Positions 7,834 to 41,630 are shown, counted from the first letter of the stretch. The stretch: DNA of 64,000 nt from a virus (IMGVR_UViG_3300028591_000100:1-64000); one strand, 5' to 3'. Numbers and translations are program-made. The notes: generated from the sequence alone by a model not told the origin.

Positions 7834-8384
7834 GCACAGAATTTGAAGAATTAAAAGCATTTTTAAAGCACCATTGTTTAACTAATTGCGGACACAATGC
7901 TAATGAAAGTTGCATCTGCAAAGCTGCCCTATGTTTTAAAGAAATCGAAAAGGCAGAACGAGCATTAGCCGAATTAAAACTCATTAAGGAGGCCAAGCCT
8001 AGTAAAGCATTGAAGAAGTTAGAAAGAATAGATGATTATGTAGACAAAGATTATGATTATTGTCAGCGTGGAGATTATGCCAAAGATTATGAGCTGATTA
8101 AACAAGTCTTACTACAGGCCCAAGAGGCAGAGGTTTTATGCGAATCACTAAAAAATCATAAATTTACTCCGAACGTTATTACTATATCTTTAGATGACTA
8201 TACTAAATTTATAGACCAACGCAATGTGCTTGAGATTCTTAAGGAAAAGAACGTTGACTTAAAATACTTAAGAGACTGCAAAACTGTAGAGGAGTACAAT
8301 AAATATTGTGACGACCTTACAGACGAGAAACCTCTTACCGAAGAGGGATTCAACACATTAAAGATGTGGCAAAAATATCAGTAG
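7830..8384 (+). CDS. hypothetical protein, EAxPSEALE / EKNVD modular family
   Basis: EAKPSKAL and LKEKNVDL...EEYN...LTEEGFNTLK; GTG start. Confidence 0.85.
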   Translation: MSTEFEELKAFLKHHCLTNCGHNANESCICKAALCFKEIEKAERALAELKLIKEAKPSKALKKLERIDDYVDKDYDYCQRGDYAKDYELIKQVLLQAQEAEVLCESLKNHKFTPNVITISLDDYTKFIDQRNVLEILKEKNVDLKYLRDCKTVEEYNKYCDDLTDEKPLTEEGFNTLKMWQKYQ

Positions 8385-8420
8385 TACACATTTATTAATG
8401 AATATCAAGAGGTAAATAGG

Positions 8421-8717
8421 ATGACAGAAAACGAAATTGAAATAGATGATATCGTCTATGCAGTTAAAAAGTTTGGGACCATTAAAAGTGGGTTCGATAT
8501 CCAAATCATTAAGTACAGAGTCCAATATAAAGGAACCTGCGCATTCATTCCTTACGGCTTTCACAATTTAGACGAGAGATGCCAAGAAATAGAATACGAT
8601 GAGTGCTGCAAGACATTGGACGAGGCAAAAGAAATTGTGAAAATAATACTGGGCGATTCCGTTGATTTTATCGAGCGCTATCATGGTGCCTACTACGACG
8701 TGGAAACGAGGGATTAA
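8421..8717 (+). CDS. hypothetical protein (paralog of 16438..16785)
   Basis: FGTIKSGFDIQIIKYRVQY...FIPYGF. Confidence 0.8.
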   Translation: MTENEIEIDDIVYAVKKFGTIKSGFDIQIIKYRVQYKGTCAFIPYGFHNLDERCQEIEYDECCKTLDEAKEIVKIILGDSVDFIERYHGAYYDVETRD

Positions 8718-8722
8718 ATAAG

Positions 8723-9883
8723 ATGGAAAATATTATAGCAGTAGATGACATTTTTAGAAACACTGATGCAACTGAAGTTAAGATAAGTTTTAATGGTGAT
8801 AACCGAGACTATTTAGAAGCTTATGCAACTAAAGTAGCTAAGGCTTTTGTAAAATATTTAAATGGTTTAGGCTTTGTAAAAAAAGAAGAGCCTAATAACT
8901 GGACTTATGGCTTAATCAATCCTAAAGATAATGTTTATGCTAGAGTCACTTGCTTTTTTAGAGATGTAGAAATCAATTTCTGGATTGAAAAAGAATACGG
9001 TAGAAGTGAACAATATCTAGACAAGCTTAAGTTCTTAAAATACACTAACCATACTTTTAAATGGTGTTTAGATTACAAAGATAAAAACAACTTAAGCTTC
9101 AGTTCAAACGGCAAGGCTAGAGACCTTTATCAAGACGAAAAGTCCAAAGAACATATGACAAGCGAAGAGCTTATCATTAAGCGTTTTAGAGAAAAATGTT
9201 GGCATAAGCCTGAAGCTAAAATACCTAACTTTAGGCTTTCTATGTCAGATGGTTCTTCAGGTGAACCTCAATACAATATCAAAGACAGAGACGGCAAAGA
9301 GATACTAAACGGCCAGACCAAGTTCTTTAGATATAACGGTTACCTATGCAAAGGTAAAGCATACCACAATATCAATAACATGTGGTGGGTTATTGTCAAT
9401 GACAAGTTCTACACAAACGTTGCTTGCTTTGAATTATTTGATCCAACTGCAGAAGATTTAAAACATAAAAAGCTCAGTCGAAACGTTAAGCCTGCCGCTT
9501 ACTTCGATAAATTCAAAAACAAGTATCCTTTTGAATCTAGCGTAAAAACCTTCCTTTATAATAAAACAGATATTGCAAAGTTAGGTCGCGTATTCACTGA
9601 CTATTGTGAAAATTATTTATTCTTAAACAGGGTAAAAAAGAGAGTCCAAAATATGCCTGAAGAATATTATTGGATAGCTAAAGAAGAAAGTTCCAGAATC
9701 TTCTGCGAGTTAAAAATAAATGGTGAGCGCTTAGAAATTGTTTATCGTCGTCAAAACTATATCATAATTATGGTTAACGACGAGCGCATTCTCGAGATAG
9801 ATTCTCGCATCGTACACTGGGACAAAGAAAAGGTTCAGCAGTGCGTCGACAAATACAGAGCGTTATTCAAACTAATATTCTAA
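8723..9883 (+). CDS. hypothetical protein
   Basis: 386-aa ORF, GAGG RBS. Confidence 0.85.
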   Translation: MENIIAVDDIFRNTDATEVKISFNGDNRDYLEAYATKVAKAFVKYLNGLGFVKKEEPNNWTYGLINPKDNVYARVTCFFRDVEINFWIEKEYGRSEQYLDKLKFLKYTNHTFKWCLDYKDKNNLSFSSNGKARDLYQDEKSKEHMTSEELIIKRFREKCWHKPEAKIPNFRLSMSDGSSGEPQYNIKDRDGKEILNGQTKFFRYNGYLCKGKAYHNINNMWWVIVNDKFYTNVACFELFDPTAEDLKHKKLSRNVKPAAYFDKFKNKYPFESSVKTFLYNKTDIAKLGRVFTDYCENYLFLNRVKKRVQNMPEEYYWIAKEESSRIFCELKINGERLEIVYRRQNYIIIMVNDERILEIDSRIVHWDKEKVQQCVDKYRALFKLIF

Positions 9884-9896
9884 CCCATAAATCAAC

Positions 9897-9921
9897 AGAC
9901 CGTTCATTCGGTCTTTTTTTT
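9897..9921 (+). terminator. intrinsic terminator
   Basis: AGACCG-ttcatt-CGGTCT followed by a T run. Confidence 0.8.
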
Positions 9922-10260
9922 ATCCCCTTTTTTGTCGGTTTTTTCCGACTTGGCTCTTTCCGACAAAACGTTTACCTCGCAGGTCAACTTCGGCTCCAAC
10001 GGCTATACCCAGCTTCCTAAACAGTACCGTCTCCTTTTTTACCTGCCCAAGTAAATATTTGGATTTCCAGCTACAGCCGTCTCTGGTATACCTGTGGGTA
10101 AAACAGTACCGTCTTCTTTTTGGCCAGTTTCAGGCGATTTTACGAGGTTTTGCTGGAGGGAGGATAAATTACAGGGGGAGAAGGAACAGAGGGGGAGGAA
10201 GAGGCAGACAGGGAAATGTAGGTCGGGGAGTGACGACTGACACGGAAGCCTTATAGCTAA
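9922..10260. other. non-coding island A: pyrimidine-rich then purine-rich, with direct repeats
   Basis: AAACAGTACCGTCTYCTTTTT twice (about 10019-10040 and 10101-10121); G/A-rich run 10155-10230; no credible ORF. Confidence 0.6.
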
Positions 10261-10304
10261 CGGGGCTTTTCATAAAAGGTGTAAATTAGGTTTTATTACA
10301 CCTT

Positions 10305-11400
10305 TTCCGCTCTCATGAACCCTTCGGGGCAAATGGGGGAGTTAGCTCTCGGTGCTTGTAATAACAGGCATCTATGAAGCCACATTTGAAGGGCAATGCT
10401 GAGAGGAAGCCAAAACTCTCTAACACTGGTAGCAGCGCTCAAGAATGGGAAAGGGATATTACCTTAAGGTTCTACAACAGACTTTCAGCAACATCGAAAG
10501 TCAGAAATTAGAACTTTCTGGACACAATGATATCCTTGGTGAGGTATGTTGCGCTTTGATTCTGGCGCGTGTCAAATTTCTGACAGTTAAAAATAGGAAC
10601 AGGGCTATAAGTAAGATAGAATAAATCCCGATGCATTATTCATCTAATCCAAGATGTAGAAATGCACTTCTCTATCTCATATTTAAGAAATTTTAGGTGT
10701 GAGAGCTATAGAGGGGCGGCCAAACAGGAGCGGTCGTGACCTGGGAAATTGTGCTGGTTATTTTGATCACACAATTCACAATACAAGTAAGTAACATATA
10801 GTCTAGGATTTTAAGACTGTTACCACGATATATTGGAAAGGTGGCTTCGGCAGTGGACGAATATAGGGCCAGTGAGGTATATGAAACAAGAGAGTTCAAC
10901 AAACTTGCTGAGTATAGCCAATAACGTACAGCCCTCTGTGTTAAAAAATCGTTCCGTAACCCTAGTGACGTAACGACTGGGTTGAGTCGACATGACGGAT
11001 GACTCGTTAAAGCAGTTAAAGCTTAGGATGGAGTAATGTCCATCGTAATTAACACTCGGGGAAGGTTGAGAGGAGAACCTTCCGATAGCTATATTGCAAC
11101 ACAACAAGAGAAGTGAAAGTCTAGTCTTAGACAAGTAGCTAATCAGTTAGTGTTGACTGTCCAATGATAGCGGATGGCCTAGAGCAAGGCCTTGAGCCAA
11201 TAAGGTATTCGAGATGGGTGTAATGTGTACATCAGATGCCTTTGAGGAAGAAGATATAGACACAATAATGTGGCGTGGAACCATGAGTATAGCGATTATA
11301 CTCCGTTAGACCATATGGGAGCGCTTGATATATCAGCTTGGTGCTATTGGGAGCTAAGTGAGCCAAAAGAAGAGGGGGTGCGAATCCCCCGCTCCTATTC
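10305..11400 (+). ncRNA. candidate giant structured ncRNA (~1.1 kb; GOLLD/ROOL size class, family not established)
   Basis: No credible ORF; nested long-range helices 10342-10352/11347-11357 and 10428-10440/11319-11348; about 20 local hairpins with G-U pairs favouring the + strand; 3' GGGGG-tgcgaat-CCCCC T-loop-like hairpin. Confidence 0.7.
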
Positions 11401-11582
11401 TTTAACAGTTTGTAAGATAAAACTGATTGAAAGATAATTCGCCGAATCTTAGATAACACTATAAATATATAGCGGTTCTAAAGATGAATGGACGATGAAC
11501 TGCGTAAAATATTAGTTCTTAATATTTTTCAAAGTGAAGTGCCTAGGAAAAGAAGTCATTATAAATTTTATATTATTTAACT

Positions 11583-11612
11583 AAAGGGGGCCTTGCGCTC
11601 CCTTCTTATTTT
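11583..11612 (+). terminator. possible intrinsic terminator
   Basis: AAGGGGGC-cttgc-GCTCCCTT followed by cttatttt. Confidence 0.55.
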
Positions 11613-11687
11613 GTATTTATATAATACAGCTCTAAATAGAGCAAACATTAGAGGAGTAGAGCGTGGTAACATGGCTCTTTCCTAATA

Positions 11688-11730
11688 TGCCTCTAAGGGA
11701 CTAACGCTGGTTCGACTCCAGCAAGGGGCA
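11688..11730 (+). ncRNA. tRNA minihelix-like element (acceptor-like stem plus T-arm only)
   Basis: GCTGG-TTCGACT-CCAGC canonical T-arm; TGCCTCT/AGGGGCA closing stem; only about 10 nt where D and anticodon arms would be. Confidence 0.55.
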
Positions 11731-11752
11731 GAAAGATAAAAGGTGATTTATT

Positions 11753-12496
11753 ATGAAAAACATTTTCACATTAGAAAGTGGAGTAGTAACAACTACTCCT
11801 ACAACATCTGAGTTCTTTAATAAAATTAAAGAATTCTATCTAACTATTGTTGTTGGCAAAGACGGCAACAAATACGCTACTGTTGAATCAGTTGAAGACC
11901 CAACCAAATGTTGGTATTCTTCTGCTATTCAAGAATTCGTTGATAGCCATAATGGCTACATTAAAATCAAAACACACAATACTGTACTACAACTATGGTC
12001 TGACACCTATTGTAATAAAACTTACAATCTTATCAAACCTATATTAAACTGGAGAGAGTATAAGTGGACTTACTTCTTCAATGATAGTTTTGAAGCTATC
12101 ATGGATAGAAGAATAAAACTTAACTATGATCCAATAGTGAAGTATTTTCGTGTGTGGTGCTGCAATGATAAGAGCGAAATATATGATGTCGAATTTGGGG
12201 TAGACACCGCCGAAGAAGCTCATGAAGTTCTTCGCCTTCTTATAATGGCAGACATATTCTGCGATGAATGTGGTTGCAAACTTCAGGCTTGCGACCCCGA
12301 TTCCATGGACGACTATTATTATTGTATTACCTTAAAAAATGAAGAAAAGAATTTTACTTTTTCTTTATTTATTAAACGTGGTAGATTAAATATTACTTTT
12401 AATCAAGGTGCTACGTCTATAACAATTGACAAGAATCAAACAGTTGATGATGTAGTCGAGAGACTGCTTCGTTCAAATTTATTCCCTAAGCAATAA
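11753..12496 (+). CDS. hypothetical protein
   Basis: 247 aa, AAGGTG RBS, CxxC motif. Confidence 0.8.
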   Translation: MKNIFTLESGVVTTTPTTSEFFNKIKEFYLTIVVGKDGNKYATVESVEDPTKCWYSSAIQEFVDSHNGYIKIKTHNTVLQLWSDTYCNKTYNLIKPILNWREYKWTYFFNDSFEAIMDRRIKLNYDPIVKYFRVWCCNDKSEIYDVEFGVDTAEEAHEVLRLLIMADIFCDECGCKLQACDPDSMDDYYYCITLKNEEKNFTFSLFIKRGRLNITFNQGATSITIDKNQTVDDVVERLLRSNLFPKQ

Positions 12497-12510
12497 GGAG
12501 GAAAAATAAA

Positions 12511-13068
12511 ATGATGAATTTAATATTATGGCACGAAAGTGCTGAAAAATTTAGCAGTTTTGATTTTACAAAATTCCAAGGAAAGGTGAAAGACCCTTTC
12601 CATGGGGTTGGTTTTCAATTTTATAATCAGAAACCAACGCACAGTTTCTCTAAATATTTATACAAAGTAGAAGTAAAAGACTTTCATGGTATAGATGATG
12701 CTAAAATTGAATTCGATATATTAAAAAAAATAGACACCTTAACAAGAGAGTGTCTCCTAAAATGTCTAACCCCCGAAGAATATGATAGCTTTACCCTTGA
12801 TGGGTTCTTATTCTTCCTTCCTGCTGAACATGAGTGGGAATATAATACAGCAACACGACCAGAAAAAATGATTCGTTTATGGAACCATTGGTCTTTCTTT
12901 ATTATAACTTATTGTGATAACAATACAATACAAGAGTATTGTGATAAACTTGTTGCAATCACTGGAAAAGACGGATATTATTGTGAAGAGTATGGTTACT
13001 CTGTAATCTTTAATACCCATAAACTCCATATTATTAAAAAACTTCACTTGAAAGGAGGTGAAAGATAA
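12511..13068 (+). CDS. ADP-ribosyltransferase-like (ART-PolyVal-type) protein, divergent
   Basis: N-terminal LWHES..KFSSFDF...HGVGFQF...YLYKVEV and C-terminal GKDGY resemble the YHGT..FxxFD...GxGxYF...GxDG ART pattern. Confidence 0.5.
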   Translation: MMNLILWHESAEKFSSFDFTKFQGKVKDPFHGVGFQFYNQKPTHSFSKYLYKVEVKDFHGIDDAKIEFDILKKIDTLTRECLLKCLTPEEYDSFTLDGFLFFLPAEHEWEYNTATRPEKMIRLWNHWSFFIITYCDNNTIQEYCDKLVAITGKDGYYCEEYGYSVIFNTHKLHIIKKLHLKGGER

Positions 13069-13211
13069 TGAAGAAGGCTTATAATAAAATGTCTTTAATC
13101 GACATCGTTGGTAAAGACAAGGCTAAGGCTCGTTTTGACTCACACAAGTCTAAAGCGAAGGCTAAGGCTAAAGCTTTACAAAAAGAATCAAAATATAAAC
13201 TAACTTACTAG
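13068..13211 (+). CDS. 47-aa Lys/Ala-rich basic micropeptide (not in ORF track)
   Basis: AAAGGAGGTG RBS, TAATG coupling; MKKAYNKMSLIDIVGKDKAKARFDSHKSKAKAKAKALQKESKYKLTY. Confidence 0.7.
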   Translation: MKKAYNKMSLIDIVGKDKAKARFDSHKSKAKAKAKALQKESKYKLTY

Positions 13212-13228
13212 TTAGTTTTAAATAGCAC

Positions 13229-13312
13229 GTGCTTATTGAGCGAAACCCGCTGAGATAGCTTGGTTTGCACGTTGGTTGGTGGTTATCCAATTTAAAACCA
13301 CCTGCTCAGCAC
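13229..13312 (+). ncRNA. candidate structured leader RNA with pseudoknot
   Basis: GTGCT/AGCAC, GAGC/GCTC, AAACC/GGTTT, GGTGGTT/AACCACC stems; loop CCAA can pair with upstream TTGG. Confidence 0.45.
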
Positions 13313-13348
13313 ATATTAAAATTTTATGAACATAAGGAGGATATAAAA

Positions 13349-14323
13349 ATGATGTTCGAAGATATGAGTTTAGTAAATTTAGAAAATCTTGAAAATAAGG
13401 AAGGTAAAAAAACAATGGAAAAAACTATAAAATTAACTACAAAAAAATCAAATTTGGTAAAATTCGCTAAGATTCAATTCTTAGGAATTTTATTGATAGC
13501 TGCTGCTATGATTATAGTAGCTTTAATTATTAATAATAATAAAACAACAAATACTGTTACAATTGAAAAAGAAATAAAGGTTGTAGATCAAGCCGCAACA
13601 GAACAAGAGGCTCAAAAGTTGTTTGATGCTTATGTGGCAAATTATCAACCAGAAGTAATCGAAAAGACTGTTGAAGTCGAGAAGATTGTGGAGGTCGAAA
13701 AACCTGTTACAATTACTGAAACTGTCGAAGTCCCAGTAGAAGTTGAAAAAACAATCTACGTAGACAAACCTGTTGAAGTAGAAAAAGTTATTACCGTTGT
13801 TGACCAACAACAAGTTCAACAACTTGCTACAGAAATGGCTAATGCCATGTATATGGCTTACAAAGAAGCTTATACTGCTCAAGTTAATGAAGCCGCTACT
13901 CAAGCTGCTATTGATACAAAAACAGCAGAATTGCAAGCAGAATATACTCAGCTTATGAGTGAATACATTGCAAAAGCAGACGCCGAAAAGGTTGCTACAT
14001 TAGCAACTGAAATGGCAAATAATATGTTTGAACAATTCAAACAAGATTATGTTGTCGAATATGCAGAAGCACAAGAGGCAGCTAGAGTTGCTAATACTTC
14101 TGTTATAAGAGTATTGGTATATACACCAGAAAGTTATTTCTTCCTAGAGATAACAGGTTCATTACACGATGAACTAACATGGGATATCATTCTTGAAGCT
14201 TTACAAGCTGACGCTCGCTTTGATGGTCTAAAAATCAAGAAGATTGAACACAAAGATGCAGTAGAAACTTTTGTTGGACGCGATTTCGATTCAACAAGAG
14301 TTATCCATACTATATACAAATAA
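13349..14323 (+). CDS. single-pass membrane protein with PVEVEK repeats and internal helical repeats
   Basis: AAGGAGG RBS at about 13334 (alternative start 13415); TM FLGILLIAAAMIIVALII; VEKPV/VPVEVEK repeats; ATEMAN twice. Confidence 0.85.
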   Translation: MMFEDMSLVNLENLENKEGKKTMEKTIKLTTKKSNLVKFAKIQFLGILLIAAAMIIVALIINNNKTTNTVTIEKEIKVVDQAATEQEAQKLFDAYVANYQPEVIEKTVEVEKIVEVEKPVTITETVEVPVEVEKTIYVDKPVEVEKVITVVDQQQVQQLATEMANAMYMAYKEAYTAQVNEAATQAAIDTKTAELQAEYTQLMSEYIAKADAEKVATLATEMANNMFEQFKQDYVVEYAEAQEAARVANTSVIRVLVYTPESYFFLEITGSLHDELTWDIILEALQADARFDGLKIKKIEHKDAVETFVGRDFDSTRVIHTIYK

Positions 14324-14332
14324 GGTGATTAT

Positions 14333-14506
14333 ATGAATAAAATCTTGGGGTATGATATAGCTCTTACCAAAATTTATCCAGATGAAAAAGTGGCAAAAGG
14401 ACAGATAAATATGTTTGACCCCGTTGTGGTGGTTGAACGTGTTTCAGTGCCACAAAAAATAAATTTAGAAAGGCAGCCTATAAAGCCTATGACAGGAAAG
14501 TTGTAG
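14333..14506 (+). CDS. 57-aa small ORF whose stop codon lies inside RNA motif copy 1 (not in ORF track)
   Basis: AAGGTG RBS; MNKILGYDIALTKIYPDEK...PIKPMTGKL. Confidence 0.45.
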   Translation: MNKILGYDIALTKIYPDEKVAKGQINMFDPVVVVERVSVPQKINLERQPIKPMTGKL

Positions 14507-14558
14507 ACTAACAGTAGGAAAGAGAGGTGGCTTCGGTTGCCTCTCGCCTGGACTAAAT
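14463..14558 (+). ncRNA. three-way-junction RNA motif, copy 1
   Basis: GCAGCCTATAAA-stem-TAACAGTAGGAAAGAG-stem(cUUCGg loop)-CTCTCGC. Confidence 0.65.
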
Positions 14559-14565
14559 GTTGAAA

Positions 14566-14661
14566 GAAAGATATAAAGCAGCCTATAAAATCTATGGCGC
14601 ATGTCGTAGGTTAATAGTAGGAAAGAGGGATGGCTTTGTCGTCTCTCGCTTTGTATCTTTC
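14566..14661 (+). ncRNA. three-way-junction RNA motif, copy 2
   Basis: Same junction sequence, different stem sequences that still pair; 14-bp closing helix. Confidence 0.65.
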
Positions 14662-17434: not shown

Positions 17435-17830
17435 ATGAAAACGTTGCAATCTATTTTTGATTATCAAATAGAAAAATTAGATGGTGTTAACACCATTATA
17501 GACTTAAACACTGTGGTGTTCAGTGCCACAGGGACTCGCGCATTCGTGGGCCAATACGGCAGTATGAATTGCTATGAAGATGAATACGACGAACATGATT
17601 ATGTTTATCGTATTACACTAGATGATTTAATCGAAATGATTGTTTATTATGCAGAGGCATTTACTACTTGGAATGGTTATGAAGAGTATTCTGATTTTAT
17701 CTCTTCTAATCCAAGTAAAGATGACATTAAGAAGTTATTAGATTCTTTTAACTTTAATGAGACTCAAACTTATGAGCTTGCAGAAAAAGTAATGGAGCTT
17801 GCTCAAGCTCAGTATGAATATAATTCTTAG
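17435..17830 (+). CDS. acidic hypothetical protein
   Basis: GAGGAG RBS. Confidence 0.8.
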   Translation: MKTLQSIFDYQIEKLDGVNTIIDLNTVVFSATGTRAFVGQYGSMNCYEDEYDEHDYVYRITLDDLIEMIVYYAEAFTTWNGYEEYSDFISSNPSKDDIKKLLDSFNFNETQTYELAEKVMELAQAQYEYNS

Positions 17831-17868
17831 GGAGGAGTAAGAGGCTTAAAGAAAGAGGTAGAAGAATA

Positions 17869-18108
17869 ATGACATTAGAAGAGTTATTAAATGTAATGGA
17901 AAACGATGAGCAGATCGATATTTGGATAGATGAAACTAAAAATATTGATACTAAAACAGCCAAAGAAATATTTGATGAAGTTGAAGTTTCTGATGTAAAA
18001 AATAGTTCGACATATGAAACAATAAAAAACTCTCAAGTGTGGTTTGTTGGTAGAACGTTCTTTAGTACAATAGAAATTAGAATCTTAGAAAATGAAAAGG
18101 GTGAGTAA
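17869..18108 (+). CDS. hypothetical protein
   Basis: GAGGT RBS. Confidence 0.75.
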   Translation: MTLEELLNVMENDEQIDIWIDETKNIDTKTAKEIFDEVEVSDVKNSSTYETIKNSQVWFVGRTFFSTIEIRILENEKGE

Positions 18109-40487: not shown

Positions 40488-40500
40488 AATATGATATAAT
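40472..40500 (+). promoter_or_regulatory. possible sigmaA promoter
   Basis: TTGCGT-N17-TATAAT with TG extended -10. Confidence 0.55.
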
Positions 40501-40659
40501 ATAGAAAGGGGTGATGCGATGATATGAGATTATTGGTAGTAGGACTAATAGTAGGAGCTGTTGTGTTAACGCTATTCTTTAATTCGGTTAACTCAAAATA
40601 TGAGAAACGAAACAGAAGACGCAAATAAACACAACAAATATTTCAGGAAGGAGGACTAA

Positions 40660-40860
40660 ATGGGATTATATCTCGTAATTTTAATAGTAGCAGCTTTAGC
40701 TATCGGAGTAACAATTAAAGAAGTTATAGACATCTATCGCTGTGCGGGGGCCAACACCCCTGCGGAGGATAGATCAAGCACGGCGCTTGTGATTTTCGCA
40801 ACGCTGATCTTAATAACTGTAATTGGTCTCATCATAGTTATAATTAGCTCTATTAAATAA
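40660..40860 (+). CDS. small two-TM membrane protein
   Basis: AAGGAGG RBS; two hydrophobic segments. Confidence 0.75.
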   Translation: MGLYLVILIVAALAIGVTIKEVIDIYRCAGANTPAEDRSSTALVIFATLILITVIGLIIVIISSIK

Positions 40861-40873
40861 AGCTACTATAAGG

Positions 40874-40901
40874 AAGCCCAGGGCACATGCTCTGGGTTTT
40901 T
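40874..40901 (+). terminator. intrinsic terminator ending the + strand block
   Basis: AAGCCCAGGGCA-ca-TGCTCTGGGTTT followed by T. Confidence 0.75.
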
Positions 40902-40959
40902 CCTGTCCTATATATACTAATAAAAAAGATCCAAAAACTACAATATAATTTAATATGTT

Positions 40960-41600
40960 TCAAACAGTGAACTAGAACTTAGTTCTAGTCCTGTTCTTTG
41001 GTTATCTGGTCTTAAATACTAGGTAGCTGAAGAAGAGGACTAGATAATCTAGTATCAAAAACTAGCTTCTCAAAGCGCCGAAGGCGCGGGGGTGGGTGGT
41101 CGGGGGAGTAGTATTTTATTTTCTGGGGGGTATTTTTTTTAGCGTAGGGGGGGGGAGCTTTTTTCGTAGACGGGGGGCCGTTTTTTCTTCCGCGCGCCGC
41201 AATTTTTTCAGGGGGGACCCCCTTTTTTACCTAAACCGCCGCCGATTTTGCGTACGAAGTCCCCTTTTAGCGTACGTCCACCCCTAAAATCGCCTCCTAA
41301 AGCCTTTTTTATTTAGCGTAGGTATAATTTATCCTGTTTCCCCCAAAATCGTCTCTATCGTCCTAAAACACCCCTAAAACGAGCTGATACGCGTTTCGTC
41401 GACTCTCTTTACGTACGTGCGCACGCCCCTACCTTTTAATATAAGGCCCTTTTTAGCCCCGCCAGGCCTTTTTTTCTTTTCTGCCCACCCCTTTATTTAT
41501 CCTGCCCCTGCCCCGCAGCCCCTAGCAGCCGTATTTAGCGTACGAGGTCATCTAGTATTGAAAACTAGATAGCGTGAGCTTGAAGACTAGGTGCCCTGGT
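40960..41600. other. non-coding island B at the strand-convergence point (candidate origin, packaging site or terminus)
   Basis: G-rich then C-rich; TTTAGCGTA x4; T-tracts about every 21 bp; CTAG-bounded repeats. Confidence 0.6.
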
Positions 41601-41604
41601 AAAT

Positions 41605-41630
41605 AAAAAAAGAGGACCCTCTAGTCCTCT
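41605..41630 (-). terminator. intrinsic terminator ending the - strand block
   Basis: AGAGGAC/GTCCTCT hairpin preceded on + strand by an A run. Confidence 0.75.

Follow-up and report, generated by a model that had tools for sequence, protein, structure and literature searches.

A candidate large structured non-coding RNA, outside the families of Rfam, in an exchangeable module of rumen phages

The window analysed here, 64,000 nucleotides long, opens a virus record of IMG/VR that is rated complete and comprises 154,703 bp. Two genes of the + strand, coding for proteins of 386 and 247 amino acids, enclose a gene-free stretch of 1869 nt (9884-11752). No ORF of more than about 120 codons was found in this stretch under translation table 11, table 4, TAG read as Q or TAA read as Q, with two exceptions: under TAA=Q the upstream gene is read through, and a 208-codon frame on the minus strand requires the read-through of four TAA codons. 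After the scans under the three non-standard readings, an alternative genetic code was rejected. The longest open frames had no match in Pfam. The claim of the sequence-only reading that about 1.1 kb lack an RBS-backed ORF was thus borne out under all four codes. Its picture of a genome otherwise filled wall to wall with genes was overstated, as about ten gaps of at least 350 nt without ORFs of at least about 80 codons are present in the genome. A second G+C-rich gap (42.5%), 1133 nt without ORFs of at least about 80 codons, lies at 40488-41620 of the window, at the border between gene blocks on the + strand and gene blocks on the - strand; it had no Rfam match at gathering score.

The composition of the stretch differs from that of its surroundings. 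Measured in windows of 300 nt, its G+C content amounts to 39-49%, while most flanking windows have 29-38% and the genome as a whole 34.9%, and its + strand holds more G than C and more A than T. Raised G+C (about 41%) was also seen at 14463-14661 of the window. In a relative of the stretch from the bovine gut (run X3), single-base insertions at positions 10687 and 10848 argue against a coding frame, which would not tolerate them. The insertion at 10687 makes a predicted hairpin loop larger, and that at 10848 would interrupt a stem in the minimum free energy (MFE) fold or lie in the UUCG loop of an alternative fold; two positions are too few to inform the fold. The features of the locus are collected in Table 1.

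Table 1. Genes and candidate RNA elements in and around the gene-free stretch (positions in the window).
Feature	Position	Strand	Details
Upstream gene, 386 aa	8723-9883	+	
Terminator-like hairpin and T-run	9897-9914	+	directly 3' of the 386-aa gene; would end the preceding transcription unit
Upstream leader	10019-10121	+	two direct repeats and motif GTAAATATTTGGATTT
Polypurine tract	10150-10215	+	GGAGG/GGA-rich
Conserved leader	10216-10294	+	hairpin, then near-invariant motif AAAGGTGTAAATTA
ORF-less body, 'type E'	10295-11359	+	hairpin-rich, 39-44% G+C
Motif GCCTTTGAGGAAGAAGAT	11239-11256	+	counterparts in types B and C
First tRNA-like minihelix	11360-11394	+	GAGC/GCTC stacked on T-loop-like hairpin
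Intrinsic-terminator-like hairpin and T-run	11584-11614	+	
Second tRNA-like minihelix	11688-11730	+	acceptor-like stem and T arm, then RBS/ATG of the 247-aa gene
Downstream gene, 247 aa	11753-12496	+	RBS AAAGGTG before ATG

The leader combines several elements. Its direct repeats, AAACAGTACCGTCT(C/T)CTTTTT at 10019-10039 and 10101-10121, are 82 nt apart, with a T-run behind either copy; they and GTAAATATTTGGATTT (10051-10066) are kept in two related contigs, L095 and L097. The polypurine tract is purine-rich in all related leaders, but its sequence is not kept; it could serve as an anti-Shine-Dalgarno or protein-binding sponge, or as an element acting at the DNA level. The leader, which carries the sequence AAAAGGTGTAAATTASGYTTT, then forms a hairpin from AAGCC (10246-10250) and GGCTT (10264-10268) around the conserved loop TATAGCTA. 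In relatives this stem is rewritten and still pairs (AAGGC/GCCTT, AAGTAC/GTATTT), a covariation that was judged by eye, and RNAalifold run on the leader did not recover the hairpin. A stem starting with AAAAGGTG, which came from RNAalifold on the leader and the shared 3' part, was not trusted. The motif AAAGGTGTAAATTA at 10275-10288 is near-invariant in relatives and occurs once in the phage genome; a role as a general phage promoter was rejected on account of this single occurrence.

Towards the 3' side, the first minihelix is built from GAGC (11360-11363) pairing with GCTC (11391-11394) and from the hairpin GGGGG-TGCGAAT-CCCCC at 11374-11390. The second one has a 7-bp acceptor-like stem (11688-11694 with 11724-11730) and a perfect T arm, GCTGG-TTCGACT-CCAGC, at 11706-11722. 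It was reported as a tRNA neither by ARAGORN nor by the Rfam tRNA model; it comprises only the acceptor/T-arm half and no cloverleaf. In the window phage, the RNA unit is likely to end at the terminator-like hairpin between the two minihelices; a hairpin of this kind is retained in the related contig L087 with a different stem (GGAGG/CCTCC). Neither internal terminators nor known small RNA families were found inside 10295-11359, and internal repeat modules were rejected for the stretch.

Searches with cmscan covered all 4227 families of Rfam 15, and in the window none of them reached its gathering score. When the limit was relaxed to E<=10, two noise matches only were obtained between 9700 and 12000. 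Group I and group II introns, RNase P RNA, tmRNA, OLE, HEARO and 6S RNA were accordingly without a match in the window, the group II D1D4-1 model (RF01998) had none in the genome, and ARAGORN reported neither a tRNA nor a tmRNA in the stretch. The Rfam check that had been proposed along with the sequence-only reading (GOLLD, ROOL, OLE, HEARO, introns, RNase P, tmRNA) therefore assigned the stretch to no family. The GOLLD profile, which according to Kretsch et al. is available in Rfam, matched neither the stretch nor the syntenic cassettes of other types described below, and the ROOL model (RF03087, gathering score 99.1 bits) had no match in the window, nor at E<=10 in 9700-12000. The search was sensitive in this genome, as a true full-length ROOL and a skipping-rope RNA were detected. 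The ROOL lies on the minus strand at genome positions 118417-119040 (L070:14417-15040), among four to five tRNAs, and scores 273.7 bits. With such a score for the true ROOL and no match at gathering score for the stretch, the proposal of an enlarged member of GOLLD or ROOL found no support. The phage lineage does use large RNAs, given that its genome carries a true ROOL. The skipping-rope RNA (RF02924, 66.8 bits, genome 122225-122307, minus strand) lies in a 2.96-kb ORF-free gap of 38.8% G+C at genome positions 121362-124321 (L070:17362-20000 and beyond).

The stretch is represented in public sequencing runs of sheep and bovine gut metagenomes, several of which, X3 and X5-X7 among them, contain 23-42% of its words. 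Contigs of four runs (X2-X5) were placed on positions 8000-14000 of the window; the many runs with small shares were left aside. In a sheep-gut metatranscriptome (X2), one contig of 1363 nt is identical to 10193-11555 at a word depth of 14.6; the flanking genes are represented only by contigs of 151-329 nt with depths of 2.3-5.9. Another RNA run made from this sample (X4) yielded only three contigs, all of them inside 10256-11369. Being contigs of one sample, they reveal neither the strand nor the true ends and do not prove that the transcript is a single one, and the over-representation is to be read with the possibility that RNA libraries contain DNA. In the bovine-gut DNA run X3, 17 differences were counted over 10351-11217 (about 2%), in comparison to 12/102, 12/157, 62/904 and 27/212 in the flanking genes (7-13%). 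Together, the presence in X2 and X4 and the conservation in X3 are good but not decisive evidence of an abundant transcript under constraint; a recent lateral transfer of the cassette could also have caused the high conservation.

Alignable homologues of the body itself were found neither in INPHARED (blastn) nor in IMG/VR or GTDB genomes, and scans of IMG/VR that started from the proteins on either side, from the DNA polymerase, from the minihelix or from a 25-mer of the body returned only remote relatives sharing a domain, or short fragments in which the region is missing. Spurious ORFs of the stretch, looked up as proteins in search of variants of the body, returned no record. Relatives of the locus were reached by proteins homologous to the downstream gene product (50-89% identity) or by the conserved element before the start codon, and these two routes gave twelve related contigs. 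Wherever a contig extends far enough upstream, the layout is a leader (10020-10294 in the window), an ORF-less body and a conserved element of 60 nt before the RBS/ATG. In L085, L087, L088 and L093-L099, the same leader and minihelix flank ORF-less bodies of 43-44% G+C, 1408-1690 nt separating the leader motif from the minihelix where both ends are present. The module belongs to a small set of rumen phages that are distant kin of SPbeta; the DNA polymerase of the window phage shares 38% identity with YorL, a protein of SPbeta-like Bacillus phages.

Among the bodies, at least five types can be told apart (A-E, with type E in the window), which cannot be aligned with each other by blastn or nhmmer, apart from a 230-nt match between B and C in the 3' part and a weak nhmmer match between D and E in the terminator region. 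Their G+C content is 42-44% across types, and none of the body types had a match elsewhere in the phage genome. Type A bodies lie upstream of three unrelated genes (245, 280 and 186 aa), and near-identical type B bodies precede a gene of either 69 or 245 aa. Moreover, type A bodies are 89-99% identical between contigs, compared with 76% for a downstream gene that they share. Judged from these sequences, the body is a separate module. Unrelated bodies in close relatives suggest frequent exchange of modules or diversifying pressure, as would be in keeping with a part played in a conflict with the host. The slot is occupied by ordinary small genes in L089, the most distant relative, and in L090, which carries the closest relative of the upstream gene. 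A small gene of the related block in L090 (L090:5262-5696) matches Pfam PF25188 (Tad6), a hint that this block holds accessory genes, perhaps with anti-defence functions.

Whether the cassettes are structured RNAs could be approached best for type A. In the RNAalifold consensus of its four sequences, 47 of the 57 variable pairs are paired in all sequences and 13 of these 47 are compensatory, in comparison to 0-6 when the 3' partners were slid, figures that derive from four similar sequences and from a structure drawn in part from the same alignment. Entire hairpins are rewritten, one example being CTCCTC...GAGGAG in place of CCTCTG...CAGAGG. Measured against the independent MFE structure of a single sequence, 35 of the 64 changed pairs are kept (11 compensatory, 1-3 in the slid controls) and 29 are broken. 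We therefore regard the cassettes at this locus as structured RNAs with moderate confidence, which is drawn from type A and has no direct bearing on type E.

Elements shared across types add to this. Types B, C and E, and likewise L088, have a T-loop-like hairpin of the form N5-TGC(A/G)A(A/G)T-N5' at a distance of 270-318 nt upstream of the 3' element, and its stems covary among types B, C, E, L088 and L099: they differ and pair all the same (AGG/CCT, GAGAGG/CCTCTC, GGGGG/CCCCT), with a change from GC to AU in two of five pairs. About 125-135 nt upstream of this hairpin, GCCTTTGAGGAAGAAGAT of the window has the counterparts CCTTGAGGAAGAG and CCTTGACCAATA in types B and C, so that a CCTTGAGGAAGA-like motif is common to types B, C and E. 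RNAalifold on the common 3' part gave no shared helices besides the T-loop hairpin. The 3' minihelix is present in 13 copies before different genes of the related contigs, with 99.4% of the cells paired, exchanges among G-U, G-C and A-U and one compensatory pair. Together with an RBS it also precedes successive genes (L085:1437-1480 and 2293-2336; L093:1746 and 4075), and it may be a punctuation mark of transcripts or a processing signal in this phage group. The type C body opens with a twister-sister ribozyme on the strand of the cassette, 63 nt after the leader motif (L096:7029-7112, minus strand of the contig, 41.5 bits at a gathering score of 34). A twister-P1-like match below cut-off (30.6 bits) was seen at L087:1863-1918, after a 246-aa gene. 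The orientation of the terminator, of the T-arm minihelices and of the type C ribozyme points to an RNA of the + strand with processed or terminated ends.

For the body of the window itself, all paired segments named in the sequence-only reading and the GGGGG-TGCGAAT-CCCCC hairpin are present where it had placed them. The three helices by which the ends were thought to close the molecule have pair probabilities of only about 0.34, 0.02 and 0.13 when 10193-11614 is folded. The local nested hairpins held up better, as those at 10453-10536, 10938-11055, 11060-11083 and 11285-11303 recur in every MFE and centroid fold. The global architecture as originally drawn is therefore hypothetical, and only the local multi-tier hairpins are stable. 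In folds of 1000 nt compared with dinucleotide shuffles, the MFE z-score of the candidate was -3.6 for its + strand and -4.0 for its - strand; a kilobase of coding sequence nearby reached -6.5 and the true ROOL of the genome -4.4. The candidate thus folds no better than coding sequence by this measure, and the energy test does not discriminate, the true ROOL itself falling short of the coding control. The lower energy of the + strand is compositional, because the shuffles of the two strands differ to the same extent as the native sequences.

Taken together, these observations are best explained by a structured non-coding RNA of about 1.1-1.4 kb on the + strand, of a class that is not in Rfam and that would represent type E of an exchangeable module, a reading to which we assign a probability of about 0.6. 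The suggestion of an undescribed class of large structured RNA gains indirect support from the over-representation in RNA, the conservation, the syntenic cassettes with some covariation and the elements of RNA-processing type, and a new class of large phage RNA is probable. That the five body types have nearly no sequence in common counts against their forming one class.

Other explanations of the same observations have to be weighed. The stretch might not give rise to one giant RNA but to several adjacent smaller RNAs or processing products, such as sRNAs, tRNA-like pieces or ribozymes. Its elements are indeed separable (leader hairpin, T-loop minihelix, terminator and second minihelix), the long-range helices are improbable and contigs cannot show one molecule; however, an uninterrupted contig of 1363 nt from an RNA library spans the stretch and the body lacks internal terminators and known small families, which makes this alternative unlikely. 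Alternatively, the stretch might be a long structured 5' leader, part of the mRNA of the 247-aa gene and regulating it in cis. It lies directly upstream of this gene on the same strand, the second minihelix and the RBS are contiguous with the ATG, and L085, L093 and L098 have no terminator between body and gene. In the window phage, however, the terminator at 11584-11614 intervenes, the X2 contig ends at 11555 and the downstream gene is thinly covered. Furthermore, one body type precedes unrelated genes, one gene follows unrelated bodies, and an ORF-less leader of 1.1-1.4 kb would be extraordinary; we therefore consider regulation in cis to be distinctly unlikely.

Unrelated bodies between conserved junctions in close relatives are also what recombination hot spots leave behind, and L090, which carries the closest relative of the upstream gene, has ordinary small genes at the same place. 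The stretch might therefore be a hypervariable spacer without function, made of decayed genes or recombination debris and transcribed by read-through only. A G+C content of 42-44% in independent types would not be expected of junk in a phage with 35% G+C. Nor do the low divergence of the stretch in X3 relative to its flanks, the conservation of type A across contexts with compensatory changes and the over-representation in RNA fit debris, and we regard a spacer as very unlikely. A site acting in DNA, namely a replication origin, a packaging site or a locus of site-specific recombination, would account for the many inverted repeats, which would then act in DNA, for the direct repeats and the polypurine tract of the leader, and for a - strand that folds about equally well relative to shuffles. 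Such a site appears highly improbable, given the over-representation in RNA libraries and the oriented + strand elements (terminator, T-arm minihelices and, in type C, the twister-sister ribozyme); an origin, moreover, would not be replaced by unrelated sequence in close relatives.

If the stretch is a large trans-acting RNA as preferred here, the module would consist of the leader, a type-specific body, a semi-conserved 3' part with the T-loop, a terminator (in the window phage) and a minihelix before the following gene. The RNA would be made in an accessory, probably early, gene block. The terminator would release or delimit it, host RNase P or RNase Z would possibly act on the minihelices, and in the type C relative the twister-sister ribozyme would free the 5' side. 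By analogy with the roles suggested for ROOL and GOLLD, the RNA might then act in trans as a folded particle, possibly as an RNA scaffold or cage, or as a sink for host factors related to tRNAs or ribosomes. More tentatively, rumen SPbeta-like phages could keep at this locus a slot in which ornate RNAs longer than 1 kb replace one another, each with a body of its own type between a common leader and a T-loop module with a tRNA-like minihelix. These RNAs would be a new family that is processed by ribozymes and by the tRNA machinery of the host and diversified in an arms race; we consider this possible, but less than probable. If true, the slot RNAs of more than 1 kb would be the largest phage non-coding RNAs known outside rRNA, and the arms race would make them, for example, decoys for defence or translation factors of the host, or cages like ROOL and GOLLD.

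The stretch lies outside every described family, and its likeness to the large ornate phage RNAs is one of context only. ROOL has been reported to be abundant and to form an RNA-only octameric cage, with its function unknown. Like ROOL, the candidate is large, without ORFs, of rumen origin and carried by a phage. Unlike ROOL, which has a mean length of 581 nt, it is about twice as long, it does not lie beside true tRNAs and its body is not conserved between related phages. The expectation of a location near tRNAs is at most loosely borne out: the nearest true tRNA of the window lies 45 kb away (57155), but two acceptor/T-arm minihelices are present on the 3' side. GOLLD is phage-borne, very large and abundant, forms an RNA-only cage and has been reported to bind ribosomes; its function is unknown as well, and tRNAs are sometimes covalently linked to it. 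The variable body and semi-conserved 3' T-loop module of the candidate may parallel GOLLD, whose 5' part is less and whose 3' part is more conserved, and the tRNA-like minihelices attached to the candidate recall the linked tRNAs of GOLLD. The shared 3' part of the candidate, however, is a motif and one hairpin and not a large conserved domain, and the attached elements are minihelices and not whole tRNAs.

The acceptor stem stacked on the T arm is the part of a tRNA that is recognised by RNase P and RNase Z. In this respect, the acceptor/T-arm elements at 11360-11394 and 11688-11730, which border the RNA and the next gene, are similar to tRNA punctuation and to the mascRNA of MALAT1. They differ from such tRNA-like processing signals by a one-base spacer that sets the T stem apart from the acceptor strand, and processing is here a prediction from sequence.

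To our knowledge, only a handful of bacterial or phage RNAs exceed 500 nt, and GOLLD, ROOL and OLE are all without a known function. If confirmed, the candidate would be longer than GOLLD, with natural variants of its body and recognisable borders. Its residence in one genome with a true ROOL, the 'allelic' variants at one locus and the borders of RNA-processing type offer handles for experiments. The use of leader and minihelix as search anchors, instead of the variable body, could reveal more RNAs of this kind. A minihelix scan of GTDB genomes found none; in the phage genome, the minihelix covariance model gave a weaker copy beside the skipping-rope RNA (23.6 bits, E 0.002) and, at 17814-17869 of the window (+), a match of 17.1 bits (E 0.15) that is probably noise.
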